64,000 nucleotides of DNA from Squalus acanthias. Its lineage: Eukaryota. The DNA lies in NCBI GenBank assembly GCA_030390025.1, contig CM059432.1, positions 70,930,001 through 70,994,000 of the forward strand. The letters are read 5' to 3'. Made by a program: the position numbers and the translations under genes. The notes beneath the pieces were generated by a model. That model had not been told where the DNA came from and searched no databases. It saw only the letters and a list, made by a program, of their open reading frames with translations. This document shows, piece by piece, positions 3,638 through 55,021 of the stretch; position 1 is the first letter of the stretch, and every line of letters starts with the position of its first letter.

Positions 3638-5236
3638 GCTGCGATTTCGCCGACCGAGGCGGGTCTGGGGCGGCCGGGGGCGGTGTTGCGGTCCCAGCCC
3701 GCTGCCTACTGCAGCCCACACTCTCCAAGTGATTTTACGTTGATTGGGCTCGTTAAGCCCGCCCTGCAAGGTTCCCGGCCAATTAAAAGGAAGCGGGTCT
3801 GATGACGTCATTTGATGATGCGTCATCAGCCGGTTTCCTTAAAGGGGCCATGTCCAAATTGATCTTGACCGTTCTGCTGTCAGTGTTCTACAGCACTGAG
3901 GTGCTGCAAACACTGATAAGCACTGCACAAAGGTGCGCAGCTGCACCCAGGCTCTCCCTTGACTCCCTCCATATGCTTATGGAGGGAGTCACAGCACGCA
4001 GGGAGGTTCTCTTCCCTTCCAATGGGCGAAAGACACCTCCCCAGGAGACCAACGTAGCCTAGTTGCACATTGCACAGGAGGGCACAAGCAGGGATGTCGT
4101 CAGGAGGACCAGGCTGCAGTGGTGCAAGCCTTTCAATAATCTGAGTAGATCACGAAACGTTACTGCCAAGCCACACTCAACCTCATCCTGATGTGCCACT
4201 CATCACATCCACATCACTCTGCCTTCCCTATCCTACTCCTGCATATCTTTACTCACACCAATTTACCTTGCACCTCCACTGTCGGAGGTGCAGTCTTTCG
4301 GATGAGACGTTAAACAGAGGCCCTGTCTGCTCTCTCAGGTGGACGTAAAAGATCCCATGGCACTATTTCGAAGAAGAGCAGGGGAGTTATCCCCGGTGTC
4401 CTGGCCAATATTTATCCCTCAACCAACATAACACAAAAACAAATTATCTGGTCATCATCACATTGCTGTTTGTGGGACCCTGATGTGCGCAAATTGGCTG
4501 CCGCGTTTCCCACATTACAACAGTGACTCCACTTCAAAAGTACTTCATTAGCTGTAAAGCACTTTGAGACGTCTGGTGGTCGTGAAAGGCGCTATATAAA
4601 TGCAAGTCTTTCTTTCTTTCACCCATCCCTCTCTATCTACATTATCACTTCCCCATCTCACTAGCCACCCCTCACACTCATCCTACTGCAAGCATAGAGA
4701 TTAACAACACACAAGGGTAGGCACTTGGGTGGTTTAGCCAATGTTCATGAGAAGTTTCTGTTAATGTGTTGTCAAACATTGAAATCTGTATTTTCAACAT
4801 TTTACCTTATTGGACAGATCTGTGCTCACCTTTGGAAGTGTCTTAATGAGTTCCAGTGAATGTTGAGACATAACTGTGAAATGGTAGCTTTCAGACCACT
4901 TTTGCAGCTGTCGCCTATTCACAACAATGGGGAGACAGAGAACCAGACCTACTTACCTGACGTGATCTCCGAACGACGTTAGCCTCGTTAAAATTGGTAA
5001 AATAGTAATAGGCTGGCAAAGTAGTAGTTAACAAGCGTTTAACAAGTATTTAACTATCTTAAATGCCTCCCCCAACACTTGGTGTTGGATCTGTTCTGAA
5101 ATCGCAGACCCGACACTTTGAAAACTTGCACGGAGGCGGGTTCGGAGCGGGCTCCCAACCTGCTGTCAATCATTTCGATTTTGACAGCGGACCCGCTTCC
5201 GAATCCGCACACTGAGCGCCAGGCAAAATCGCAGCC
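3638..5236 (+). mobile_element. Non-autonomous PIF/Harbinger derivative (decayed Myb/SANT exon)
   Basis: 15-bp TIRs GGCTGCGATTT(C/T)GCC flanked by TAT; homologous to 36750-39346 and 55330-57136; remnant APRLS..LMEGVTARREVLFPSNGRK. Confidence 0.75.
4278..4620 (+). mobile_element. 5'-truncated Deu-domain SINE (SacSINE1/AmnSINE-like) nested in Harbinger derivative
   Basis: GGATGAGACGTTAAAC..GTAAAAGATCCCATGGCACTA..GGTGTCCTGGCCAA; tail GCTATATAAATGCAAG(TCTT)n; host sequence resumes at 4621. Confidence 0.85.
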
Positions 5237-13700: not shown

Positions 13701-14273
13701 TAGACCCCTGAAGGTCTTAAGAATTTTAGCCCAATTTTTCATCTCTCTTATAAAGGGTGGCAATAGGCACATGCAAGTCATTTTTCTGTGGCTATGGGTG
13801 GGGCAGGAATCCTCTCACCAGAGAGAATTTCACAAATTGGGTTTGGTATCCTGGGTTAAGGAATGGAAAATTGGCCAAGGTTCCTGCTCCACTGTCGAGC
13901 AGACCATGCTGGAAGTGTGTGTGGGGGTCTGGACTCCAGGCACATTTGTCAAACAGCCCACTAGCACTCAAGTGTTATGGTTCACATGACCAGATCTCAC
14001 CATGTCTGGGTGCTGACCCTCAGTAGATGAAGTGGGGAAGGCAGAAAATAATTGGTGAGGAGGAGCGAATTCAGATTTCCCTCCCCCTTTCAGATATCCA
14101 TTCTTTTGCTGGGTTGGGGTGACAAGGCCAGACTTCCAAACTGAAGTCAAGGAATTACATGAAAACAGTGGTAGTGGGATTTATTTACCAAACAAATAAC
14201 TGGTGGCCATTATATCCTGTATGCATTGTATTTAATCCCCCCGCGGGAGTAATGCAAGAGGTATTTTCCTGAC

Positions 14274-14591
14274 CTGGTCGGCTACTTCGTACACGGATGT
14301 CTTCTTGCTGCAGTCACACGAGTAGGTGTAGACCCTGGCTCCTCTCTCTCGGGCCAGCCGCGCCGTCTCCTTGTTACCTTCAGCATTGATGTCCCAGAGC
14401 ACGAGCGTGGCTTGCAGGCGGGCGAACTCCAGCGCCAAGAGCCGCCCGATGCCGCTGCCAGCCCCGCTCACCAGCACGATCTCTCCGCTCACCTTCTTCT
14501 TCCGCACCGGCACCACCAGCAACACCAGTGCTTCCAGAGTGTAATACAGCGACAGGAACAGCACCTGAAGCGTCTCTACAAAGAAGTTCAT
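14274..14591 (-). CDS. SDR16C5: SDR16C5/RDHE2-like, first coding exon
   Basis: ATG at 14591; MNFFVETLQVLFLSLYYTLEALV...GEIVLVSGAGSGIGRLLALEFA...LWDIN...CDCS...VADQ with a hydrophobic N-terminus and Rossmann GxxxGxG motif; donor CAG|gtcagg; CpG-rich; synteny with PENK. Confidence 0.92.
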
Positions 14592-16960: not shown

Positions 16961-17526
16961 TAATCGATTTTTAGGCCTACTTCATGTTAAGTCTCTATTA
17001 ATTTGCTTGGAGCCCATTAGATTATTTTTAGTGGTGATCTCTTAAAGGGAGCACTTGCAGTACTGATTTTTGTTCAGTGACACTAATTAAAATAGGCATA
17101 TAAGGAATTGGGGGCCACATCAAGAGAATTCTAGGATTTGACTTTTTTCTAATCGCCTTAAGCGTCAATGAGCACTGCTTAGAGTCTAGCGATGCTCAAG
17201 GACAGCAGTGTGGTGAGGGATGCAAATTAATTTTTTTTTTACAGATGGGGCTGGAGGGCTGTTCAATCTTTAGCAGTCGACAGTTGCTCTATGTATGGGC
17301 CTCCTGATGCCACCGGTGGGCAGAAAATTAATTCATCGGACCGGTTTCCTGCCAGTAACTGGCTCCGAGTTAAAATCATCCCCCTGTCCCCCCCACCACC
17401 CCCCGCCATGACTGAAACACTAAATGTGTACTTCAACTTAATTTTGACAGAAGAGTGTGGTAGTGGGAATGAAAAGGTACAGAGGACAAGGTGGAGCAAT
17501 TAGATAGGGTAACTATAGATAAAGAA

Positions 17527-18672
17527 AAATGAGAAGTCGCACAACACCAGGTTATAGTCCAACAGTTTTATTTGAAATTACGAGCTTTCGGAGCTCTGCT
17601 CCTTCGTCAGGTACAGTGAGGGAATACAAATCGGTTACAAAGTATATATAGACAGAGAACAATGTGTCTGCAGAGATACAATCCGTCAGGGAGGCATTAC
17701 ATCAAAGACACAGCAGAGTACAGCTAAGACAATGAGGTGGGGTCACAGGGGGTCCAACGTGTCAAATGCTGCAGTCTGCAGTTAAGCTTTTTACTTTTTT
17801 TTAAAACTGGAAATCACATCTGTGAACCAGACAACGACGTCGAGTCACGTCCTGTAGTGTGACATGAAACCGAGATCCCGGTTGAGGCCGTCCTCATGGG
17901 TGCGGAACTTGGCTATCAGTTTCTGCTCGATGATTTTGCGTTGTCGTGTGTCTCGAAGGCCGCCTTGGAGAACGCTAACCCACAGATCCGAGGCTGAATG
18001 TCCTTGACTGCTGAAGTGTTCCCTGACTGGGAGGTAACAATCCTGCCTGGCGATTGTTGCGCAGTGTCCGTTCATACGTTGTGAACGTATGAACGGACAC
18101 CGCACAACAATCGCCAGGCAGGATTGTTACCTCCCAGTCGGGGAACACTTCAGCAGTCAAGGACATTCAGCCTCGGATCTGCGGGTTAGCGTTCTCCAAG
18201 GCGGCCTTCGAGACACACGACAACGCAAAATCATCGAGCAGAAACTGATAGCCAAGTTCTGCACCCATGAGGACGGCCTCAACCGGGATCTCGGTTTCAT
18301 GTCACACTACAGGACGTGACTCGACGTCGTTGTCTGGTTCACAGATGTGATTTCCAGTTTAAAAAAAAAGTAAAAAGCTTAACTGCAGACTGCAGCATTT
18401 GACACGTTGGACCCCCTGTGACCCCACCTCATTGTCTTAGCTGTACTCTGCTGTGTCTTTGATGTAATGCCTCCCTGACGGATTGTATCTCTGCAGACAC
18501 ATTGTTCTCTGTCTATATATACTTTGTAACCGATTTGTATTCCCTCACTGTACCTGACGAAGGAGCAGAGCTCCGAAAGCTCGTAATTTCAAATAAAACT
18601 GTTGACTATAACCTGGTGTTGTGCGACTTCTCATTTTTGTCCACCCCAGTCCAACACCGGCATCTCCACATC
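17527..18672. mobile_element. Fold-back (inverted) Penelope-like element, 5'-truncated, with GIY-YIG C-terminal fragment on both arms
   Basis: Inverted arms 17525-18080 and 18084-18638; ORFs ..PVGEHFSSQGHSASDLRVSVLQGGL..RKIIEQKLIAKF..GLNRD; about 34-bp unpaired 3' tail; 12-bp TSD ATAGATAAAGAA (17515-17526, 18673-18684). Confidence 0.9.
18551..18585 (+). ncRNA. Minimal type I hammerhead ribozyme motif (mirror copy 17579-17613 on minus strand)
   Basis: UAC-CUGACGA-A-GGAGC/aga/GCUCC-GAAA-GCUC|GUA: catalytic core, stem II, palindromic AGCU stem III and a 3-bp stem I. Confidence 0.7.
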
Positions 18673-18844
18673 ATAGATAAAGAAGTAAGATCAAAAAAAT
18701 TGATGGAACTCACAGTGGAAAAGCCATGGTCCTTGATGGCATGCATTTTAGAATGCTAAGGGAAATTAGTAGAGGTTTTGACTACAATCTTTTAAACATC
18801 CTTAGATATATAATTTGTGCCAGAGGACTCAAGGGTTGCAAATA

Positions 18845-21960: not shown

Positions 21961-22696
21961 CTAGCACACACACACAAACATACTCCTACTGTCCTCCTCC
22001 CTCCTTCCCGCAGGTCCTCTCTGCCTGGGTTTCATAGGATGCATTGTGGTCCTCCCGACCCCGCTGTTGGCCCATGCCGCACCTTCCCTAGGCCCCGACC
22101 CCACTGCTGGTCCACGCTGCGCCACTCCTGGGCCTTGACCTCTCTGCTGGGCTTGTCCTCGCTCCTGGGTCCCGGCCTTGGACATGAATGATGTTGTCTC
22201 TCACAGGATCAAATTAGCACTGATATTCTCGCGATCCCTGGCCCCGAACTCCATTCGCGATCCACTAGTCACTAGATCACTAGTCTAGTGGAGAAGCATA
22301 GTCTTGACGGCAGAGAGGTCTGGGAATTTGGGAGCTAAGTTTAAGTGAAGAGCCAGTGCTCACTGAGAACAAAGAACAGGCATGGTCGGGGGATGGGCAG
22401 TGGACTCAGGTAACTTTAACCTTGCAGCTTGAACTTGCAGTTAGGGATAAAATGCACCCACTATTAGAGCCAGGGGAACTTAAACAGCAGAAGAGAGGAG
22501 ACGGGGGGTGGGGCGGGGCAAGAGTAAAGGATGGCCAAGGATGGCAAAGGAGCTCCCTGGGGAGCTGCCAGCTCAGGAGCCATCTTGTTTAATGGTGGAT
22601 ATGGAGATGCGGCGACTGACAACTGACAAATATACTCTATTCATCATCCCCTGCATATATAACCAGTTGGCACAAAGCAAGGTATAATAATATAGA

Positions 22697-22889
22697 AATG
22701 AGAAGTCGCACAACACCAGGTTATAGTCCAACAGATTTATTTAATTTTACAAGCTTTCGGAGCTATCGCTCCTTCGTCAGCGATAGCTCCGAAAGCTTGT
22801 AAAATTAAATAAATCTGTTGGACTATAACCTGGTGTTGTGCGACTTCTCATTTTTGTCCACCCCAGTCCAACGCCGGCATCTCCACATC
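22697..22889. mobile_element. Short fold-back Penelope-like terminus, same family as the 17.5-kb element
   Basis: 75-bp arms 22696-22770 and 22779-22853; same 3' tail; 13-bp TSD ATAATAATATAGA (22684-22696, 22890-22902). Confidence 0.88.
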
Positions 22890-24049
22890 ATAATAATATA
22901 GAGATACACAGGACAAGAAAGGGCCATGGCGATCCATCTGCCAAATCCCAAAGTTCAAAGTACCTTACTATATTACATAATAAATGCCAAGGCATGCTGA
23001 ACAAGTAGGAGTTAAACATAAATGTATTTGCTCTCCTATCGTGCCTGCGAATTCCAGGCCTGATAAGACCTTTGATATTCTCATCACAATTAGTCTTGGT
23101 TTATACGATCTTTTAATACTGCTGTTGACTTGCTTAATCTTGTTTGGGTGTTTGGCTGTTACAAATGTGTAGTTAACTTTGTTATTGCTGCAGTATTGCT
23201 ATTTTTCTGTGTATAGTGTGATGTTGAACTGGTTTTGCTTGTGTTTTTGATTGTGTTTTATAAATTGTTTCATAAATAAAACTTTTTAAATATATAAATG
23301 TACTGTCTTTGAACTGTACTTGAAACGTATCAATGTAAAATAAAATCTTTGAATTTTGTTCATTTCTAACTGAAGATTTCTACCATTTCTCACTACCTTA
23401 CATTGAACTAAGATCCCTTCTATGAATATTTGAGCACCACTTTCCCTTTTAAATCAGTTGTTTATCTAATTTTCAAAGGCAGCGTTATTCAGATTGAATT
23501 CGAGAATTAGGCAGAAGGCTTGCTCAATGAATGTTCTACACTGATCCGAAAGTAGTCTTATTTTTCTAAAATCTACCTTTTATGCAGTGTTAACGTTATA
23601 TTTACTTTTGAAGAAATTAATTTGTTAGTTGGAACAATATTTTCATTACAATGGAATAAAGGTGAGACAGAAGGAGTGTTTGTGGAGGATGTGGAAGAGC
23701 CACGACGAGATAAATATTCAAAAGGAAACTTATACTTGAATATTAAATTAAAAGGAAAAGGTTAGTAGACTGAAACTCACCAGGTCCAAATGTTATACAC
23801 ACCAGAATGCTGAAGGAAGTTGGAGAGGAGCTAGAAAAAATAATAACCATAACTTTACAAAAAATGGACTGGAGGGTGGTAAATGTTATACCTAGGTCCT
23901 AATACATAATTAAATCTTATTGAAATAGATCTAGTAATATATGAGATTGTTCATAAAAATGTTTTAATTATCAAGTGAAAGGGCCCTTGAAAATATAATT
24001 GCAGGATGCCCTTTTGCTAACTATACAGTTGCATGTTGGGATAGAATAA

Positions 24050-28159: not shown

Positions 28160-29410
28160 CTTTCAGCAATCCGGAGAAGTGTGAGGTAATGCATTTGTGG
28201 AGGGTTAACAAGGCAAGGGAATACACAATAAACGTTAGGATACTGAGAGTATAGAGGAACAGAGGGACCTTGTGGTGCATGTCCACAGATCCCTGAAGGT
28301 AGCAGGACAGATAGATAAGGTGGTTAAGAAGGCATATGGGATACTTTCCTTTATTAGCTGAGGCATAGAATACAAGAGCAGGGAGGTTATGTTAGAACTG
28401 TATAAAACACTAGTTAGGCCGCAGCGAGAGTACTGCGTACTGCTCTGGTCACCACATTACAGGATGTGATTGCACTAGAGAGGGTACAGAGGAGAATTAC
28501 GAGGACTGGAGAATTTTAGCTATGAGGAAAGATTGGATAGGCTGGGGTTGTTTTCTTTGGAACAGAGGAGACTGAGGGGAGACTTGATTGAGGTGTATAA
28601 AATTATGAGGGGCCTAGATAGAGTGGATGGGAAGGACCTATTTCCCTTAGTAGAGAGGTCAATAACCAGGAGGGCATAGATTTAAATTAATTGGTAGAAG
28701 GATTAGAGGGGAGTTGAGGAGAAATTTTTTCACCCAAAGGGTGGTGGGGGTCTGGAACTCACTGCCTGAAAGGGTGGTAGAGGCAGAAACCCTCATCGCA
28801 TTTAAAAAGTACTTGGATATGCACTTGAAGTGCTGTAACCTGCAAGGTTATGGACCAAGAGCTGGAAAGTGGGATTAGGCTGGATAGCTCTTTTTCGGCC
28901 AGCACAGACACGATGGGCCAAATGGCCTCCTTCTGTGCTGTAAATTTCTATGATTCTCTGATTCAATATGAAGGAGGCCATTCACCTGTCATGCCTGTGC
29001 AGGCTCTTAGTCCCACACCCCAGCTTTTACCCCATAACCCTGCAAATTTGTTCTCTACAAATACATGTCCAATTGCCTTTTGGAAAGTTCCTATGGAATT
29101 TGATTCCACCACCCTTTCAGTTAGTATGCTCTAGATCATAACAACCCTCTGTGTGAAATCATTTCTCCTTATTTCCCCTCTTGTTCTTTTGCCAATTATT
29201 TTAAATCTATGATCTCTGGTTACCGATCCACTTGCCAGAGGAAACAGTTTCTCCCTACTTGCTCTATCAAATCCCCTGACAATTTTGAATACCCCTATTA
29301 GGTCTCTCCTTAACCTTCTCTGCTCTAAGGAGAACAATCCCAGCTTCTCCAAACTCTCCATATAACTGAAGTCCCTCATCCCTGGTATCATCCTGAGAAA
29401 CCTCCTCCGT
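28160..29410. mobile_element. Two CR1 3' fragments, tail to tail (+ 28160-28962; - 28965-29410)
   Basis: CR1 ORF2 C-terminal motifs on opposite strands. Confidence 0.88.
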
Positions 29411-34155: not shown

Positions 34156-36030
34156 GAATAGAATCATAGAATGGTTACAGCACGGAAGACGGCCATTTGG
34201 CCCGTCGAGCCCATGCCGACTCTCAGCTAGTCCCACTCCCCTGCCCTTTCCCCGTAGCCCTGCAATTTTTTTTCCTTCACATACTTATCCAACTCCCTTT
34301 TGAAAGCTGTGATTGAGTCTGCCTCCACCACCTTCTTAGGCAGTCCCTCGGAACCGAGGATGACTTGCCTCAGCCACCCTTTCAGGCAGTGCATTCCAGA
34401 TCTTAACCACTCGCTGTGTAAAAAAGTTTTTTCTTACGTCGCCTTTGGTTCTTTTGCCAATCACCTTAAATCTGTGTCCTCTGGTTCTCGTCCCTTCTGC
34501 CAATGGGAACAGCTTCTCTCTATCTACCCTGTCCAGACCCCTCATGATTTTGAACACCTCTATCAAATCTCCTCTCAATCTTCTCTGCTCCAAGGAGAAC
34601 AACCCCAGCTTCTCCAGTCTATCAACGTAACTGAAATCACTCATTCCTGGAATCATTCTCGTAAATCTTTTCTGCACCTTCTCTAAGGCCTTCACATCCT
34701 TCCTAAAGTGTGGTGCTCAGAATTGGACACAGTACTCCAATTGGGGCCAAACCAGTGTTTTATACAGGTTCATCATAATTTCCACACTTTTATACTCTAT
34801 GGGTGAAAAATTGGGTTGGTTTGCGCCTCTTGTTAGCACCCCCGGGGTACACTAACGGGGCACAAATCCCTTAGCACCCGGGCGCGGCGCCGCTAATGCC
34901 TCCCGTGAAAGTCAGTGGGAGGTTAGCGGCGGTGGAAGCCGGTAGTGCCCTGCACCGCCGCCGATGATGTCATCGCTGTGCGCAGCGCCTCGGCTGCAAA
35001 TTTCCCTTATGCCCCCTGACCTATCGCCGCACGATATGTGCGACAGGATCAGGGGGCGGTTTGGTAGCAGTGGTGGCGCAAGTTAAAGGGCAGGTGTCAG
35101 GCGGCTGCCAGCACCTGCCCCCTTTAGCTTTTGTATGTGGGGTGCCGGCCGCGAACGCTCAGCCTGGCACTCCTCTCACGGCACCCTGCTCCCTGGTGGT
35201 CCGGCAGGGTGACGGTGTGCGCAGCGCTAGGAACCCCCCTTTAATCAGAGAAGGAGGCCTGCAATGACGCGGCGCTATGTGCTGCTGCGTATGGTGCGGC
35301 TGCACATAGTGCTGCGTAATTCAGTAGTAGCACCCCAAGCAGGAGGTGGAGCGCTTTCCAGTAGCACCCCACCTCCTGCTTGGGGCACTACTACTGAATT
35401 TACAGCGGGGGTGGGGGGGGGGGAGGGCGCTAACTTTTTCGGGGCGCTAAAATTAGTGCCCCAGCGACGTTAGCTCCCCAAAATGGGTGCAACCCAATTT
35501 TTCCCCTGTACCTCTATTTATGAAGCCCAGGATCCTGTAAGCCTTTTTAACTGCTTTCTCAACCTGCCCTGCCACCTTCAATGATTTATGCACACCTACC
35601 CCAGGTCGCTCTGTTCATGCACCCCCTTTAGGATTGCACCCTTTAGTTTATAAGTCCTCTCCTCATTCTTTCTACCAAAATGCATCACTTCACACTTTTC
35701 TGTGTTAAATTTCATCTGCCACGTGTCCACCCATTCCTCCAGCCTGTCTATGTCTTCCTGAAGTCATCACAATCCTCCTCACTGTTCACTATACTTCCAA
35801 GTTTTGTGTCATCTGCAAATTTTGAAATTGTGCCCTGTACACCCAAGTCCAAGTCATTAATATATATGAAGAAAAGCAGCGGTCCTAGAACCAACCCCTG
35901 GTGAACACCACTGTATACCTTCCTCCAGTCCGATAAACAACCGTTCACCACTACTCTCTCTTTCCTGTCACTTAGCCAATTTCGTATCCATGCTGCCACT
36001 GTCCCTTTTATTCCAAGGGCTTCAACTTTG
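34156..36030 (-). mobile_element. CR1 LINE fragment interrupted by a MITE
   Basis: [19 protein letters not shown]-like and [12 protein letters not shown] motifs; LINE sequence resumes after 35507. Confidence 0.92.
34801..35507. mobile_element. GC-rich MITE (Harbinger/Tourist-like)
   Basis: TIRs GGGTGAAAAATTGGGTTG / CAACCCAATTTTTCCCC; 3-bp TAT/TGT flanks; cleanly splits a CR1. Confidence 0.8.
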
Positions 36031-37983
36031 CAACTTTTCAACTTTACATTGAAATAAATGGAACAAAAATCAGGCAGGTTCTACAATGGATGGGTAACCT
36101 GCTCTGCTAGGTTACTGCCCAGGTAGTGAAGTTGAAAATTACTTCCAAATTATTTAGGTCTGGCAATGGAAGTTCAGAAACAAATTGACTCTCTGTTGTA
36201 GACTCAGTAATCCAATACCTCAGCATGTCTGCAGTACTGCAAGGCAGTGATAATGATTAATCAGTCAACCTGTCTTCTACTGGTACCTGGAAAGTAGATG
36301 TGTCAGTTGGCACTAGGAATCTTCTCAATCTGTCAAATTTAGTTCAATGGAATGAAACTCAGGTTAGTTGTACAACAGAGGTGAGATCCACTCCACTAGA
36401 TAATCACCTAGGCAGTGAAGGTGACAATTACCTCCTATGGGAGAGATTTTCGGATCGGTTCAGATGGGCATGTTATCAACAGTGGGCCTCTGGTGCCTGC
36501 CCAGGGCCAGAGTCGAGAGGCTGAATGATTTCCATGCTTGGGTCTCATTTTAATTTTTCTGGTGACTGCGGGCACCAAAGGAGCACTCCTCTGATGCCTG
36601 CTGGTTTGGAACTTGTAGAATTGGCTGGCTTCTGCACAGAGCTGGCTGGCAGGTAGGGCCTGTTGGGGTGAGGGGAGTGATTCTGGAGAGGTTCGGTGTG
36701 GGGGGTAGAATGGGCCCGCAGAGGACCAGAATATATTGAAAAAGATATTGGGGGGGATTTTTCGTGGGGTCAGTGGGCGCAATCGGTGGCGGGTCAGGTG
36801 GGAAAAAACATTTTTTGACAGCGGGTCGGGACGCCGCTGTCAACCCACTGCCAAACGCCTTTCCCAGATGTCGGGTCTGTCAGCGTTGACAGACCCGACA
36901 CGCAGTGGCGGGGGAGGCAATTCAGGTCATTATGACCTTGTTAACAGCCCATTAAGAAGTATTTTGAGCTCATCTTTACATTTTACGAGGTCGCTCACGG
37001 GGTCCACGCTGCTCGGGGATCATGTCAGGTAAGCAGGTCGTGAGTTGTATGACCAGGGAATCATCTCATTACTTGACAGCTGAAAATGTGCTATAAAAGC
37101 TCCCATCTCACAGCTGTTCACTTTACAAACTCAGAAGCTGTTGCTTACTGCATTTGGAAGACAGATTGAGCTTTATGCAGGTTGCAAGTGTTTGGAGTAA
37201 ACTCTCTATCCAGTGTCACCTCATTGGAACAACCTCTCTCACCATTGACAGATCGCTTCTGTCATCTCAAGTTCACCTGCCATCAGCATCAGTGCCCTTG
37301 AAACTATCTCACCTTGGTCTTCAGAATCCCACCACGATCAGCCCCAAAACCAGCATCACCAGGCATACCAGCAGCACCAACAACAACACCAACCTTCTCC
37401 GCAATCAACTGATGCTGCACAGGACACAGGGCATCAGCACCCAACCACGTCCGGAAGACCAGGGATGGCCTCACCATGGCCAGATTTACTTCACTTGATG
37501 CTATACACCTTGGCTGCCACATGAAGCACCAGGTTGGCACCACCCCACACCAACACCATAAAGCATCCCTACAATGCCCAAGCCATTCCTTTCACACTCA
37601 TGACCATTGCAGGGGTACCGTTATGTCTCACCATTCACTGCAACTCACTAAACCACTTCCAAAGGTGCGCACAAATCTGTCCAAGAACACAAAGTTTTGA
37701 AAATAAAGGTTTCAATGTTTGACACCACATTAACAGAAACTTTACATGAACATTGCGTAAAACACCCAAGTGCCTACCCTTGTGTGTTGTTAGTTGGTAT
37801 GATTGCACTAGGATGAGCGTGAGTGTGAGGGGTGGCTACTGAGATGGGGAAGTGATAATGTAGATAGAGAGGGATGGGTGGAGGTGCAAGGTAAGTTGGT
37901 GTGAGTAAGGATGTGCAGGAGTAGGGTAGGGAAGGCAGAGTGATGGGGATGTGATGAGAGGCACAACAGGATAAGGTTCAGTG

Positions 37984-38800
37984 CACGCGCAGGAGATGCA
38001 ACACATGCCCTTACACCTCCCCTCTTCCCACTGTCCAGGGCCCCAAACACCCCTTCCAGGTGAAACAGCGATTTACTTGTACTTCCTGCAATTTAGTATA
38101 CTGTATTCGCTGCTCACGATGTGGTCTCCTCTACATTGGGGAGACCAAACGCAGATTGGGTGACCGCTTTGCGGAACACCTCCGTTCAGTCCGTAAGGGG
38201 GACCCCGAGCTCCCGGTGGCCTGTCACTTTAATTCACCGCTTCACTCCCACTCTGACCTCACCGTCCTCGGCCTATTACACTGTTCCACGGAAGCGCAGC
38301 GTAAGCTCGAGGAACAGCACCTCATCTTTCGTTTAGGCACGCTACAGCCCTCTGGACTCAATATCGAGTTCAACAATTTTAGATCATAACCTCAGCTCCA
38401 ATCACATTTATATTTTATTTTTTCCACCCTTTTATTTGCCCCCCCCACCTTTTTTTTCCTCCTAGAAGCTGGCAGCTGTCCTTCATTCTGCCAGTGGATT
38501 TCACACTTCTTTCAGCCTTAATCTGTCACATTAACACCACCTCTAGCCTTGCATATCTCTTAATGTCTCTTAATGTCTCTTCATCTCCCCCTTTGTTCTT
38601 TTATCCCCTCCCCCTTTTCCCAGCTTTACTCTGGCCTTAAATCTATTTGATTTCCGGCTCTTCACAGTTCTGACGAAAGGTCATCGACCTGAAACGTTAA
38701 CTCTCTTTCTCTCTGCACGGATGCTGCCTGGCCTGCTGAGTTTTTCCAGCGTTTTCTGTTGTTATTTCAGATTTCCAGCATCCGCAGTATTTTGCTATCG
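37984..38800 (+). mobile_element. 5'-truncated Penelope-like element (second family) with GIY-YIG endonuclease ORF
   Basis: ORF 38060-38389 NLVYCIRCSRCGLLYIGETKRRLGDRFAEH...HF...GLN; 12-bp TSD TAAGGTTCAGTG (37972-37983, 38801-38812); nested in a Harbinger derivative. Confidence 0.92.
38666..38702 (+). ncRNA. Minimal type I hammerhead ribozyme motif in PLE terminus
   Basis: AGUU-CUGACGA-A-AGGUC/auc/GACCU-GAAA-CGUU|AACU with palindromic ACGU stem III and a 4-bp stem I. Confidence 0.72.
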
Positions 38801-42582: not shown

Positions 42583-43242
42583 CTAAATTCTCATAAATCC
42601 ACCATATCTCTTTTCAAGTTCAGGGACTTCTTTGGAATAAATTTCACCATCTTCATCAGAAGGAATGAAAGCATCATTCCAGCGTTTCATAAATCCACCA
42701 TACCTTTTCTGGTAATCTGGTTTACCAAATCTTCTCATGAAGCCCCCATATCTCTTTTGCAATTCTGGCAAATCTTCTAATTCAGGGCTTCTCTTGAATC
42801 CATTCATGAATCCTCCATACCGCTTCATGATCTCGCTGCGGCTATCAGAGTTGCTGTGGTCCAAGTAATGCTTCCGTTCATTGAGCTCACTTAAGTTCAG
42901 CAGCTCTCTCAGAATGTCAGCAGAATCTACTGAAGAAGCGCTCTCAATGTCCTTCTTCATAAACCCTCCATATCTCTTACTCAGTATCTCTCTTCCCTTA
43001 TTTTCATCGTCGACTTCGGAAATATACGTATCACCACTGTCTCCTTTTTTCATGAAGCCTCCATAGCGCTTCATGAAGCCGCCATACCTTTTGCTCAATA
43101 GCAGGCGTTGCTCTTCTTTTTCTTTGTCATTTTCAGGAGAACTTTGACTGTCATCATGGAGTTTGTTGACTTCTTCTAGCTCCTTACACATCCCCCATGC
43201 CTTTCCTGATGGCAGCTTACCTTCACACTCTAATGTGCAACT
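42583..43242 (-). CDS. PENK: Proenkephalin, last coding exon
   Basis: Acceptor tttcag|AGT; SCTLECEGKLPSGKAWGMC... then seven YGGFM cores preceded by KR sites; ends YGGFMRI-stop. Confidence 0.98.
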   Translation of the reverse strand, partial: SCTLECEGKLPSGKAWGMCKELEEVNKLHDDSQSSPENDKEKEEQRLLLSKRYGGFMKRYGGFMKKGDSGDTYISEVDDENKGREILSKRYGGFMKKDIESASSVDSADILRELLNLSELNERKHYLDHSNSDSRSEIMKRYGGFMNGFKRSPELEDLPELQKRYGGFMRRFGKPDYQKRYGGFMKRWNDAFIPSDEDGEIYSKEVPELEKRYGGFMRI

Positions 43243-44204
43243 CTGAAATAAAATAACATTTATGTATCAAATAATGCGTAATGTATACTGAAAAGCAGCA
43301 TGACAGTCAAACAGGTCAAGGAGACATCGACGGCCAAACAAGTTCCTGTATTTTATTGTTGTAAAATCTATTACAGCTCCCTGGTCTTGCTATGTGTGGT
43401 GGAGTGAAGAGTTCAGTTGCATGTGATACATACATTTAACAATTTTATTACATCATTTTGTGATATAATTCAACTTCTTTATCCAAGTTCAGCTGATGTG
43501 GGAACAGACAGCCAACTTAATAAAAACATTTTCTGAAATTTCACCAACTCCAAGAGCAGCAATGTCTTGAGAGCACCCTCACCACAAGGACTGCAGCAGT
43601 TCAAGGAGAAGGCCCACCACCAACTTCTCAGGCCAACTAGGGATGGGTAATAAATGCAGTCTTGCCAGTGTTGCTCTCATTCTGAGAACAAAAAAGCTAG
43701 ATCAGAGTTTCACTGGACCATTTTTGGATTATGTATAATCTGTGAAAGTGGTTGTATACACTGACCATTTCTCATTTATATTCAGCACTAATTGAGAAAT
43801 TATTTTTTTATCTGGGAATAGTTATGCAGCTAGACAATAATTACACGCTAAACAAACTAACAGCTAAACTGCAGATTATGGCTGGATAAAATTCCAGAGG
43901 TTAGGTGAGGGTCATTAATCCCTTAGTAACAACTTCAACTCTGCTTCACTGTAACCTATCAACGGGCGTCCAGTAAAAAGTATATAAACTGAACTGGCCC
44001 ATATCAACTGCAGGAAATATGATAATAGAAAATGGATACACATGAGTAACTTCACACACTATTGCCCTAGGATTCAGATGACTGTTCACATTTGAACGCT
44101 TCAATGTAATTGTTGTCTTGGATTACATTAAATATTTGTTATTTTCGAATGATTTTTTACATAGCCACATTTTTTGTATTATGATCTTTTTTAAAAAAGA
44201 GACT

Positions 44205-44495: not shown

Positions 44496-45269
44496 CCCGG
44501 TATTACTTGACGATGAGTATGAGGAAGTATTTAATTTCCTAATACTAACATTCTTCGTCTTAAAAAGATCAAATATTATATTTAAAACAGGGGGAAAGAC
44601 AGTGAACATGCAGTTGTGTAATCGAGCAGTCCAGTGGTGCGGGATACAGTCCAGCTCCAGCAATCAGCATCACAGGACAGTGGCTTCTTCAGGAAGACGA
44701 AACGATATTTGTGTGTTTACTTAGCACATATTTAACTTAACAATAGTTTGGATAAAAGTGCTGTCAGTCACGCATTAAATGCTATTATTTGCCTTAAGCA
44801 ACTAAGCAATTGCCGTTTAGGTAAAGCAATTGTATATTCTCAAAACGGGACATCATTTCTGACAGTCCCCCCCCCCCCATATAATTATCTAAAACCAAAC
44901 AGCTGGCCACTAACGAAAGGTATTAAAATCCAATAAAGTACTGGTGGGCCGGGCTTTTTCTAGAAAACTGAAATTGTAAAATTGTTGTGCACAAGCGGCC
45001 GACGTTGTTCGTGTACAGACAATTGTTTCTTCAGTACTCAGCATAAATTCTGGCTCTCAGTTCGGTCTTCCGTCCATACAGCGGCGCAGTCGAATCCTTT
45101 ACGTGAAAAGCTAGGATGTCACTGAAGTTGCGTAAATACAAACCTGGAACAGGTTGGCTTACTAGTAGAGACTGAGAGGAGCCGCAAGATGTTTGTTTCA
45201 ACCCTTCATTAATTGCAATTTCCCCCCTCATCTTTTAAACTTATTAAACAGGAACGATCTTTCCATTTC

Positions 45270-45385
45270 CTGCTTTTTTCCAGTTCTGACGAAAGGTCAT
45301 CGACCTGAAACGTTAACTCTGTTTCTCTCTTCACAGATGCTGCCTGACCTGCTGAGTTTCTCCAGTATTTTCTGTTTTTATTTTG
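45270..45385 (+). mobile_element. Solo PLE terminus with intact hammerhead motif (45282-45318), in PENK intron
   Basis: Near-identical to 38660-38770; CTGACGAAAGGTCATCGACCTGAAACGTTAACT. Confidence 0.8.
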
Positions 45386-49718: not shown

Positions 49719-52718
49719 GAACGCACGGACTTTATCTTCCACGACGCGTGACACATTGCCGCCTACAGGGACAACACACTTCAGGATCTAATTGGAGAAA
49801 AAAAGTGTGGATTTGTAAATGAAGGATAATCGATTGCCCCCAGTCCCATTTTTAAAGGATGTGTAGGATGAGACTGCAGGGAGCATTCACATTCCAATAC
49901 AAATCCGCTACTCTAAGAACAAATGTAGAAAACCACAGCAAAGCAACAAGTGAGACGTGTTCACTTGTAAAGTGTTTCGGGGCGGTTCGCAATTGCGGTT
50001 AATGAATGTCCGAACTAAGCGCGACTGAAAGGGATTGTGCATTCCTGAGCTGGATTTAGAAGATAGCAAAGGACAAGTTAAAAGTATATGTAAAATTCAG
50101 TTAGTTATTTTGGTATTGAGTGATCTGGTACATTTCGTATTATCACAAGCCTCAAAGCAGGATTGCACTAAGGATGCAGGTCGCAGGCTGTATCCGATAT
50201 ATCACGCATTCAGCGTGAAGATCTGTAGAATAACAGCAAAATGGGCACATTTTAGATTAAGCTGATTTAATTTAATTTATTTATATATATTTTTTTTAAA
50301 TTGGGAGTTTATTGGAGCTGGACTCCATTCTAAAGCCCAGAACAAAATGTGTCTTACTTGTTATTTTAACTGCATCTTGTGCCGAGTCTACCTGTGATCG
50401 TGTGCTGGTAACTAGCGACAACAATCATTGTGGAGAAGATCGCCAAATAAAATCAATCTTGGCAAAAGCTTAAGCTGTTTACAAAAGTACATTTTATGAC
50501 ACCAACTGGGCATTGTTATATGGGCGGCAGTCAGCACGATTCAGGGATTCCCACCTATCCATTTTACACCATGTAACGCGAACTTCTCCAGCTCCCCAAT
50601 ACGTGAACTCAAGTGTTCAAGAGTTCTCAGTCCAGTCCGATTTTATTTAGTTGAAATCCCGCGTTTTGTAGTTATAATCATTTTGTCAACGGGCCAGCCT
50701 GGCGCTAGAACTGCGCATATTGCCAGACTTTAGTTTATTAGTCAAGCGTAAAATAAAAATGTAAAAAAAAAACACCCATATAAAACAGGCAACGTGCACT
50801 ACACCGGTGTATCAGGGATAGGCCCAGAGCTACTGCTTTGAGATTGGAAACGCAACAGGGCTATGCTTTTCTACAATAAAGGGTTAATAGCCCTTACTTT
50901 ATAGAAATGAATGACATTTCCCCCCACAAGTTTCCGTCTCCTTCGTAACGGTTAGTGTCGGTGAATGTGTACGGGCCAATCAAATATTTCCTCAGCCGTG
51001 CTGTTCTCCCACTCAGCGGGCTCCATGAAATCCCTCTGTGCGGGAGCAGCAAGCACACAGAAGGATCCGGCAGGGGTGCATTTAGTGTTCGCCTGGGAGC
51101 GGTACTGGTCGGAGAATTTACACTGCTGTTTGGCACTTCTCAAGCAATTTCAATGTAACCAGTAAAACTTGCAAATATTTCTCTATCTATTCGTGCAGTG
51201 TACAGAGAAAGATTTTGCAAAGCTCTTGTACACATTTGGTCTAGCGGGGAGAAGGGATCTGTCAAGTCCAAGAATGCTTAATGAAAGCTCCAATCTAAAC
51301 GATTAATAGCTTTGTTCTCCTAACGCAACTCCTCAAAGTCTGGACCCGAGCCAATTCCTGCTGTTCGCCTGGCTCAGTCCAAGCCGCTTTAATCAGCCTG
51401 GATCCAACATGATTTCCACTAGCAAATTAAAGAAATTACAGCTGACTTGTGAGGTGGCGGGTGTTAACACCGAGAAGGTGACTAAATGTGGGTTGTAAGG
51501 AAAGCTGTGTTAGTTTTATAATTTTATTATATGAATGAAAACAAACGCCTAAAAGGTTAGCAAATGAGGAAAAAAATCATTCTCCAGGATTATTTTCACT
51601 CAAGTAAGAAGGTGCACTGTGCAGTAGCATCTTGAATTCTATGCAGTTTTCCATCCTGTACTGGTGCCTATTACTGGTGCCTGTAGCTCAGCCCATTTAT
51701 CACTCATGAGAGGGGAGAACGGCATTTAGCCCCTTTCTCCCATTTAAGATTGGCAGCACCATCAAAGCACGAAGATGATACCATAAATTGCAAAAATGAA
51801 CTCGTGCAGTTGATAAATGGCAATCTAACCTTGCGATTGCATGCTTTAATTTCTCCCTTAGCCATTCTTATACATCATTTTTTGGGGTGGTGAAAATTGT
51901 CAGTTTTTGTGATTACTTAACAAGTTCTTTGTTCCCTGATGATTATTATCTTTGTTACTTCATTTTGGTCTTTTATGACTGGTCAAATATGATAGCGAGG
52001 AAGGCATGATTCTGCTCTGTAGCAATCTATCAGTAGATGTACATCTAATTTTTTGACAGTGCTGTGGGCGAGAATGCCTTTGTAATCTTTTGGCGAGTGT
52101 GCATTTGAAGTCTAGCTGATGTAGTGGAGGTGAGTCTGGGAAGAGAAAAAGTCAAATCTCTCGTGGCGTGTGTCTTTGTCCCTGTTTGTCTAATGGGGAG
52201 AAGGAATGCGTCAAAGTCCCAGAAAGTTTAATGGAAGAGGACAATCTAATAGTTGGCACACACCAATAAATACTGTGTCAGTCATGGCAGTCTACTGGTT
52301 GGCATACCTCAGAGGTTAGTGCAGGCTCATCCCAATTGGAAACTGGTAAGCTTCATCAGATCTTCAAGTTTGAATTTGGAAGATCCTATTTCTAGACCCT
52401 TAGAATGCACAGCATTAACTTAGAATGCCTTTCAATAACAACAACAACAAGAACTTGCATTTATATGGCACTTTTAACATAGTAAAACATCCCAAGACAC
52501 TTCACAGGAGTGTAATCAGACAAAAATTGACATACTGAATATCCTGGATCAGACACATTAGTATGTCATAGTGCATAATTTCTATTTAAATTCCATTCAT
52601 ACCGTTAAACTATTATCAATTATAATTAATTTCAGTTTATAATTTTTGTAGCTCTCTCCATATTAATAGTGACTGACAAGTTAAGTGTAAGTTCTATTCA
52701 AATGATTGTGTAATTTAC

Positions 52719-55021
52719 CAGTGGGAGTTGGGTTAGGTTTAGACCAGCAGTGGGAGTTGGGTTAGGTTTGGACCAGCAGTGGGAGTTGGGTCAGGTTTGG
52801 ACCAGCAGTGGGAGTTGGGTTAGGTTTGGACCAGCAGTGGGAGTTGGGTTGGGTTTGGACCAGCAGTGGGAGTTGGGTTAGTTTGGACCAGCAGTGGGAG
52901 TTGGGTTAGGTTTGGACCAGCAGTGGGAGTTGGGTTAGGTTTGACCAGCAGTGGGAGTTGGGTTAGGTTTGGACCAGCAGTGGGAGTTGGATCAGGTTTG
53001 GACCAGCAGTGGGAGTTGGATCAGGTTTGGACCAGCAGTGGGAGTTGGGTTGGATTTGACCAGCAGTGGGAGTTGGATCAGGTTTGGACCAGCAGTGGGA
53101 GTTGGATCAGGTTTGGACCAGCAGTGGGAGTTGGATCAGGTTTGGACCAGCAGTGGGAGTTAGATCAGGTTTGGACCAGCAGTGGGAGTTGGATCAGGTT
53201 TGGACCAGCAGTGGGAGTTGGGTTAGGTTTGGACCAGCAGTGGGAGTTGGGTTAGGTTTGGACCAGCAGTGGGAGTTGGGTTAGGTTTGGACCAGCAGTG
53301 GGAGTTGGATCAGGTTTGGACCAGCAGTGGGAGTTGGGTCAGGTTTGGACCAGCAGTGGGAGTTGGGTTAGGTTTGGACCAGCAGTGGGAGTTGGGTTGG
53401 GTTTGGACCAGCAGTGGGAGTTGGGTTAGGTTTGGACCAGCAGTGGGAGTTGGATCAGGTTTGGACCAGCAGTGGGAGTTGGATCAGGTTTGGACCAGCA
53501 GTGGGAGTTGGGTCAGGTTTGGACCAGCAGTGGGAGTTGGATCAGGTTTGGACCAGCAGTGGGAGTTGGGTTAGGTTTGGACCAGCAGTGGGAGTTGGAT
53601 CAGGTTTGGACCAGCAGTGGGAGTTGGGTTAGGTTTGGACCAGCAGTGGGAGTTGGGTTAGGTTTGGACCAGCAGTGGGAGTTGGGTTAGGTTTGGACCA
53701 GCAGTGGGAGTTGGATCAGGTTTGGACCAGCAGTGGGATTGGGTCAGGTTTGGACTAGCAGTGGGAGTTGGGTCAGGTTTGGACCAGCAGTGGGAGTTGG
53801 GTCAAGTTTGGACCAGCAGTGGGAGTTGGGTCAGGTTTGGACCAGCAGTGGGAGTTGGGTCAGGTTTGGACCAGCAGTGGGAGTTGGATCAGGTTTGGAC
53901 CAGCAGTGGGAGTTGGGTTAGGTTTGGACCAGCAGTGGGAGTTGGGTTAGGTTTGGACCAGCAGTGGGAGTTGGGTTAGGTTTGGACCAGCAGTGGGAGT
54001 TGGATCAGGTTTGGACCAGCAGTGGGAGTTGGGTCAGGTTTGGACCAGCAGTGGGAGTTGGGTTAGGTTTGGACCAGCAGTGGGAGTTGGGTTGGGTTTG
54101 GACCAGCAGTGGGAGTTGGGTTAGGTTTGGACCAGCAGTGGGAGTTGGATCAGGTTTGGACCAGCAGTGGGAGTTGGATCAGGTTTGGACCAGCAGTGGG
54201 AGTTGGGTCAGGTTTGGACCAGCAGTGGGAGTTGGATCAGGTTTGGACCAGCAGTGGGAGTTGGGTTAGGTTTGGACCAGCAGTGGGAGTTGGATCAGGT
54301 TTGGACCAGCAGTGGGAGTTGGGTTAGGTTTGGACCAGCAGTGGGAGTTGGGATAGGTTTGGACCAGCAGTGGGAGTTGGGTTAGGTTTGGACCAGCAGT
54401 GGGAGTTGGATCAGGTTTGGACCAGCAGTGGGATTGGGTCAGGTTTGGACTAGCAGTGGGAGTTGGGTCAGGTTTGGACCAGCAGTGGGAGTTGGGTCAA
54501 GTTTGGACCAGCAGTGGGAGTTGGGTCAGGTTTGGACCAGCAGTGGGAGTTGGGTCAGGTTTGGACCAGCAGTGGGAGTTGGATCAGGTTTGGACCAGCA
54601 GTGGAAGTTGGGTTAGGTTTGGACCAGCAGTGGGAGTTGGGTCAGGTTTGGACCAGCAGTGGGAGTTGGGTTAGGTTTGGACCAGCAGTGGGAGTTGGGT
54701 TAAGTTTGGACCAGCAGTGGGAGTTGGGTTAGGTTTGGACCAGCAGTGGGAGTTGGATCAGGTTTGGACCAGCAGTGGGAGTTGGATCAGGTTTGGACCA
54801 GCAGTGGGAGTTGGGTTAGGTTTGGACCAGCAGTGGGAGTTGGGTTAGGTTTGGACCAGCAGTGGGAGTTGGGTTAAGTTTGGACCAGCAGTGGGAGTTG
54901 GGTTAGGTTTGGACCAGCAGTGGGAGTTGGATCAGGTTTGGTCCAGCAGTGGGAGTTGGGTTAGGTTTGGACCAGCAGTGGGAGTTGGGTTGGGTTTGGA
55001 CCAGCAGTGGGAGTTGGGTTA
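52719..55021 (+). repeat. 29-bp minisatellite, about 79 copies
   Basis: Unit ACCAGCAGTGGGAGTTGG(GTT/ATC/GTC)AGGTTTGG seen directly; the array accounts for all the stacked ORFs here. Confidence 0.98.

Follow-up and report, generated by a model that had tools for sequence, protein, structure and literature searches.

The 64,000-nucleotide stretch of Squalus acanthias contig CM059432.1 analysed here (hereafter, the window) holds a palindrome with almost no spacer, which raises the question of what it is, and how and in how many events it was formed. A reading made from the sequence alone had described it as 1.1 kb long, with a 3-nt loop, a 34-nt tail on one side only and a TSD of 12 bp. Aligning one arm with the reverse complement of the other confirmed this architecture: the paired arms extend over 17525-18080 and 18084-18638, the loop reads GTG, the unpaired tail has the reported length, and the TSD is an exact repeat (Table 1), for which we estimate a rough chance of 5e-4. 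The longest perfect block measures 243 bp and the stem beside the loop 17 bp, and the arms are equally truncated, so that the entire insert is one 556-bp hairpin. This locus, which we call copy 1, is a dead insertion, truncated at its 5' end, from a Penelope-like retrotransposon that is very abundant in the shark.

Table 1. Features of the two fold-back copies and of the neighbouring gene, in window coordinates.
Feature	Position	Strand	Remarks
First coding exon, SDR16C-type dehydrogenase	14271..14591	-	Transcribed away from the element; ATG at 14591
Copy 1, left TSD	17515..17526	+	12 bp, A/T 10/12; last two A overlap the left-arm end
Copy 1, left arm (3' end of the element, inverted and without tail)	17525..18082	-	Family sequence reaches 18082, contigs then diverge
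Copy 1, mirror minimal hammerhead, left arm	17579..17613	-	
Copy 1, mirror of the TATATATA/TCACT pair	17643-17650 and 17615-17619	-	Faces the SDR gene
Copy 1, unpaired centre	18081..18083	.	2 letters extend the left arm; 1 in neither family orientation
Copy 1, right arm (5'-truncated sense copy)	18084..18638	+	
Copy 1, GIY-YIG endonuclease C-terminal remnant	18084..18319	+	Stop at 18319; mirror 17845-18081 on minus
Copy 1, TATATATA and TCACT initiator-like motif	18514..18549	+	23 nt apart; outward-facing, promoter-like, putative
Copy 1, minimal type I hammerhead motif	18551..18585	+	3-bp stem I, 5-bp stem II; predicted cut after 18582
Copy 1, tail	18639..18672	+	34 nt, unpaired, right arm only
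Copy 1, right TSD	18673..18684	+	
Copy 2, left TSD	22684..22696	+	13 bp, A/T 12/13
Copy 2, inverted tail-less arm	22696..22780	-	Ends with the initial C of the hammerhead core
Copy 2, loop	22771-22778		8 nt; 2-nt overlap at 22779-22780; both within the tail-less arm
Copy 2, sense arm	22779..22853	+	Starts inside hammerhead stem II
Copy 2, tail	22854..22889	+	Unpaired; 34 nt as in copy 1 but for 1 mismatch, followed by two T
Copy 2, right TSD	22890..22902	+	

The identification as a Penelope-like element (PLE) is supported by a remnant of a GIY-YIG endonuclease, by the tail, by the inverted 5'-truncated build and by the variable TSD. Of 27 candidate proteins, 15 were matched by the remnant of 78 amino acids; those with a name all come from sharks, and the best match, at 92% identity (E 2e-37), is to the C-terminus of P0001 of Heptranchias perlo. 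Upstream of this endonuclease, P0001 bears a reverse transcriptase, recognized by RVT_1 (E 5e-9) and by a DKG motif; the corresponding region is truncated away in both window copies. A Pfam search with the two remnants gave nothing credible, and in the relative P0006 the GIY-YIG domain scored 21.7 bits, just below the cut-off of 22.6. Family contigs that continue past 18082 encode YIGETMQTL (translated by hand), a motif also present in the alignment of the relatives, which both confirms the endonuclease and fixes the junction of copy 1. Of the CCHH motif, the two histidines are retained in the window remnant and are invariant in the alignment of the relatives (A1), while the cysteines, present in most relatives, belong to the part truncated in the window copies. 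The relatives P0001, P0002, P0003, P0005, P0006, P0009 and P0011 have a CX2-5CxxC linker, which is altered or absent in P0007, P0008 and P0012; this linker, which lies outside the window copies, is common to Neptune and Nematis as opposed to Penelope/Poseidon, and suggests a family of the Neptune/Nematis type, probably Neptune itself.

The end of the element is ordered as GIY-YIG C-terminus, TATA/Inr, minimal hammerhead and tail. The family is very abundant, with a summed read depth on the arm of 1e5-1e6 against 11 on the flank, a depth that is not a copy number. The tail patterns were matched by no contig from metagenomes, prokaryote genomes or viruses, and a protein scan of metagenomes returned one distant, unrelated-looking locus only, at 30% identity. 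Three other identities were considered and rejected. The ends are unequal by the tail, the TSD length is variable and the coding remnant is that of a GIY-YIG endonuclease, which speaks against a MITE or TIR DNA transposon. Non-LTR retrozymes are defined as non-coding head-to-tail tandem units with hammerheads in the available part of bioRxiv 10.64898/2026.07.22.740005, whereas the copies described here are head-to-head and copy 1 contains a coding remnant. As for a miRNA, Rfam at E<=10 gave only sub-threshold miRNA-hairpin and other chance matches, as expected of any long stem.

A second copy of the same family and the same architecture, overlooked in the sequence-only reading, lies 4 kb from copy 1 at 22684-22902 (copy 2); that reading had held its interpretation to depend on other inverted copies of the family, and here one is found within the window itself. 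The tail has only two matches within the 64-kb window, and 2/2 belong to fold-backs. The arms of copy 2 are identical at 75/75 positions, and both differ from copy 1 at the same several sites, which indicates that each insertion drew both its arms from one template. In copy 1, the arms likewise have in common four letters that are in the minority among the family reads. The proposal that the hairpin arose in a single insertion event is supported by both observations. The TSDs of the two copies are AT-rich (83% and 92%, compared with 56% for the window), and each shares 1-2 A with the tail-less end.

The divergence between the arms of copy 1 tells of what happened after insertion. The global alignment of one arm with the reverse complement of the other gives 7 differences in total, in agreement with the earlier description of about six that were mostly CpG changes plus an indel: there are six substitutions (17803, 17904, 17982, 18024, 18060 and 18063), five of them CpG transitions, and one indel at 17559, where a base is absent from the right arm. 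CpG accounts for 58/556 positions (10%), so that 5/6 substitutions of this kind have a P of about 7e-5. The transitions fall on both arms, and at 17982 and 18024 the letter of the family, as judged from the reads, is that of the right arm. From this pattern the arms appear to have decayed independently by CpG deamination since insertion. A single non-CpG substitution in 2x498 sites would place the insertion at about 1.4 million generations (95% range 0.04-8 million), an order of magnitude at best, given that the rate of 7e-10 is that of another species, the epaulette shark, and that the one substitution sits at a homopolymer edge. Copy 1 has in any case persisted long enough for the decay of 5/58 CpG copies.

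Twenty sequencing runs contain part of the stretch; five of them, from two samples of organism A, cover half or more, and contigs of four runs were aligned to positions 16970-18115. In run X5, which represents a second individual, a contig of 1682 nt aligns to 16970-17526, apart from three differing letters and one gap, and then extends by 1089 letters foreign to the arm. Its departure coincides exactly with the final base of the left TSD, the point expected for an empty allele; we infer that the contig probably represents such an allele and that the insertion is probably polymorphic. The flank contig of run X1, which may be the source sample, ends at 17521; the insertion lies at the edge of a low-copy repeat (17438-17522, depth 340-450 versus 11), which may explain this break. 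The flank contig of organism B ends at 17504 and is uninformative on the insertion. Contigs aligning through 18082 numbered 30 in X1, 14 in X5 and 4 in X7, so the left arm is family sequence up to 18082, 18083 is an extra letter, and the right arm begins at 18084. Family contigs repeatedly end at 17525-17530 with a mixture of tail and non-tail letters beyond, which shows that tailed and tail-less termini both recur. One run, guessed to be of RNA, had a contig on the flank at 16970-17134 in addition to family contigs, and gave no evidence for transcription of copy 1.

Other joints between family sequences were also seen among the contigs. Looser opposite-strand joints connect 17565 with 17602 and 17774 with 17910 in X5, and in X1 another inverted, looser joint runs from 17545 to 18084. 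Tight junctions are therefore not universal in the family reads, a point that weighs against the explanation favoured below. Both individuals have a contig that extends to 17563, passes into five letters of the tail end and restarts at 17525, which corresponds to a short tandem re-start at another locus.

By which route, then, were the two arms joined? The sequence-only reading proposed that reverse transcription had folded back on its own product; its single event holds, but its plain form does not, since the loop extends the tail-less arm in 2/2 copies. Eight loop letters continue this arm in copy 2, where it overlaps the sense arm by 2 nt, and two loop letters do so in copy 1, followed by one extra letter, a polarity observed in n=2 copies and in one of them by 2 nt only (1 in 16 by chance). 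Each copy is the product of one event, with two different termini and the same loop polarity. The explanation that fits best, and that we consider reasonably probable, is priming from both target strands at two start sites of reverse transcription, followed by closure at the centre; we infer both the dual priming and the closing step.

According to this proposal, the endonuclease of the element would nick the two strands of an AT-rich site at positions 12 bp from each other, as judged from the TSD, and both 3' ends would prime reverse transcription on the element RNA. The outer start site would give rise to the tailed arm, and a second start 34 nt further in, at a U-run, to the tail-less inverted arm, with synthesis ending prematurely within the endonuclease gene. 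Since the tail cannot be copied from the tail-less strand, a second source is needed. The centre might then be closed in one of two ways: the tail-less cDNA could snap back, through the pairing of 1-2 nt or with the help of an untemplated base, and copy itself until it reaches the tailed cDNA, or two cDNAs with almost coincident ends could be joined. Most of these activities have been described for PAc, the enzyme of a lizard PLE (PMC11167929, in the available part): on AT-rich DNA both strands are cut and extended, synthesis begins at two internal positions separated by one tail length, and uncleaved RNA is the preferred template; the enzyme is predicted to be dimeric. A further point in favour is that both arms of both copies span the hammerhead cut site. 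The text of PMC11167929, as far as available, does not derive inverted copies from dual priming, and its sole use of "inverted" refers to a blocking nucleotide; the origin of inverted PLE copies is still termed undefined in the available parts of PMC8557442 and PMC11167929.

A different route, self-priming on an antisense template, was put forward by Arkhipova et al. in 2013 (discussion of PMC3846280, seen in part). A free antisense strand would fold back at its 3' end and be extended to a full hairpin that includes the tail, endonuclease processing would remove 34 nt from its 5' end, and integration would follow. Head-to-head arms, tight loops and a loop on the tail-less arm are what this model predicts and what is seen in 2/2 copies, and the available part of PMC8557442 also suggests the tail to be an intermediate resolved by the endonuclease. 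On the other hand, the in vitro work explains the tail by two starts of reverse transcription on sense RNA (PMC11167929, in the part available), and the overlap of 1-2 nt between the TSD and the tail-less end fits target priming, so that we regard the antisense route as rather unlikely.

The plain version of a fold-back, in which the first-strand cDNA with its tail turns back to serve as its own template and synthesis ends 34 nt too early, would also explain the nearly equal arms, copied from one template, and the tight loops. It requires the loop to be contained in the tailed cDNA, whereas the loop of copy 2 is antisense on the top strand and absent from the sense orientation, and that of copy 1 is also contrary, by 2 nt; moreover, it gives no reason for a stop at the identical tail border in both copies. 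This leaves it improbable. The arms could instead stem from two separate insertions or a later rearrangement and have been kept alike by gene conversion, an idea that can draw on the extreme abundance of the family and on the ability of conversion to make arms share variants. Against this, one TSD encloses both arms in both copies, the 75/75 identical arms of copy 2 share their subfamily letters, and the arms of copy 1 retain unrepaired CpG differences beside the loop; we give this reading, too, only a small probability. Finally, an assembly or library fold-back chimera, to which the lack of a contig crossing the centre or right junction of copy 1 among the 32 of 27,065 pieces listed might point, is very unlikely in view of the 7 differences between arms with their CpG signature on both, the different flanks joined by an exact TSD, a tail beyond the reach of a fold-back read, a second copy of the same build, and a contig from another individual that leaves exactly at the TSD end.

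The sequence-only reading had also reported a hammerhead on each strand. The motifs are present: a descriptor search placed cores at +18554 and -17610 in copy 1, and the descriptor matched the window 4 times and none of 40 simulated 64-kb sequences, while Rfam applied to the window gave no hit of any kind at gathering and, at E<=10, none to a hammerhead. Both arms of copy 1 have the core boxes, stems I and II, the extra base 9/10.1, G10.1-C11.1 and a palindromic GC at 15.2-16.2, and copy 2 lacks the complete motif, having lost the 5' strand of stem I. Their occurrence on both strands, however, is a by-product of the inverted arms, which makes one the mirror of the other. Folded by itself, the motif was no more stable than shuffled sequences (z -1.15), and the whole unit as RNA is computed to fold at about -1126 kcal/mol, with the hammerhead completely paired with its mirror. 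Buried in the stem in this way, it would leave a read-through RNA with no free ribozyme, and since the motifs are on opposite strands, an active dimer in one transcript is impossible.

The earlier reading further noted that the palindrome lies about 3 kb upstream of SDR16C5. The distance is right (the ATG is 2,924 bases away). The best PDB matches of the exon are 17-beta-HSD13/11 (E 3e-24), and we take it to be SDR16C5 from its sequence and from synteny with proenkephalin, which is presumably encoded at 42586-43266 (minus strand), in a large exon with repeated YGGFM motifs, and which supports a SDR16C5-PENK neighbourhood. The left promoter-like motif faces the SDR16C-type gene. As these motifs face outward, they would not be expected to transcribe the hairpin. 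Hammerheads and promoter-like motifs are, as far as can be read from the letters, passengers of the duplicated terminal repeat, and no host function is indicated for copy 1. Nor did the analysis give evidence of a cruciform or of hairpin or small RNAs, which the sequence-only reading had considered possible, or of an influence on the SDR16C-type gene.

The window contains other repeats. A different PLE family is represented by regions at about 37955-38800 and 45265-45383, with hammerheads at 38670 and 45286 and a 143-aa endonuclease frame with a cysteine linker (37958-38386; Pfam GIY-YIG above cut-off), 40% identical over 68 aa to the endonuclease of copy 1. The self-comparison of the window revealed no inverted arm for this family, and the fold-back habit is therefore not common to every PLE copy in the window. 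An 83-nt imperfect palindrome (35318-35400) and two of 32 nt (3960-3991 and 36869-36900) show no relation to the Penelope family in BLAST. Two diverged LINE-like 3' ends, presumably of CR1 type, lie in opposite orientation at 28515-29370 and are about 66% complementary, and a high-copy tandem repeat with strong GC skew occupies 52716-55021.

As a single locus, copy 1 carries little weight; its use is that of a clean fossil, and loop polarity provides a cheap genome-wide test between models. We put forward only tentatively, and with doubt, that the tight fold-back, with its loop always on the tail-less arm, is a main product of this family, and that thousands of nearly spacer-free palindromes of up to a kilobase persist in the genome over very many generations. 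If true, this would give a genomic read-out for the unsolved second half of the Penelope cycle, in which a dimer would prime both strands and the inner cDNA snap back; sharks would lend themselves to testing how well long palindromes are tolerated, and some empty alleles might be precise excisions between TSDs. Long, tight and near-identical palindromes are described as fragile sites in yeast and mammals (PMC7999016, in the part available), and the survival of a near-identical palindrome of 556 bp with CpG decay is a data point on such tolerance. The literature listings and passages covered here contain no description of kilobase shark PLE palindromes, of twin priming by PLEs or of a loop-polarity rule; figures, supplements and subscription papers may contain one.

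The structure itself, of which the sequence-only reading made too much, is published PLE anatomy (Arkhipova 2013; Craig 2021), besides recurring 4 kb away: an inverted 5'-truncated copy, a junction palindrome, a one-sided tail and a TSD are known from rotifers, flies and fish (PMC3846280, PMC8557442 and PMC8969392, each in its available part). The closest likeness is to Pen2a, Pen2 and Pen3a of Adineta vaga, with an inverted pLTR, a junction palindrome, a 31-bp tail and a TSD of 8-10 bp (PMC3846280, PMC8557442, in part); as in the shark, a 5'-truncated copy is inverted head-to-head, the tail is at one end and the TSD surrounds the unit. The pair formed by TATATATA and TCACT also occurs in the rotifer pLTR (PMC3846280). 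In contrast to the rotifer palindromes, which measure 18-38 bp in the available text of the same paper, the shark arms are equally truncated and form a 556-bp hairpin, and the host is a shark. Minimal hammerheads like those of copy 1, with the same core boxes, extra base 9/10.1, G10.1-C11.1 and palindromic 15.2-16.2 and with no stem III, are reported for metazoan PLEs (PMC4209133, in the part at hand). PAc, the Poseidon element of Anolis carolinensis, shares with the shark copies a hammerhead close to the 3' terminus, a pair of termini spaced by one tail, AT-rich targets and, as it appears, an uncleaved RNA template (PMC11167929, as available); it belongs to the Penelope/Poseidon clade, whereas the shark relatives have the CX2-5CxxC linker of Neptune/Nematis. 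Finally, twin priming of LINE-1 resembles our proposal in that both target ends prime, the products are joined in the middle and one TSD results (bioRxiv 10.1101/2024.12.14.628481, in the part available). In LINE-1 the cDNAs copy different parts of the RNA, which leads to an inversion, whereas in the shark the starts would be 34 nt apart, which would make the arms complementary and the product a palindrome.
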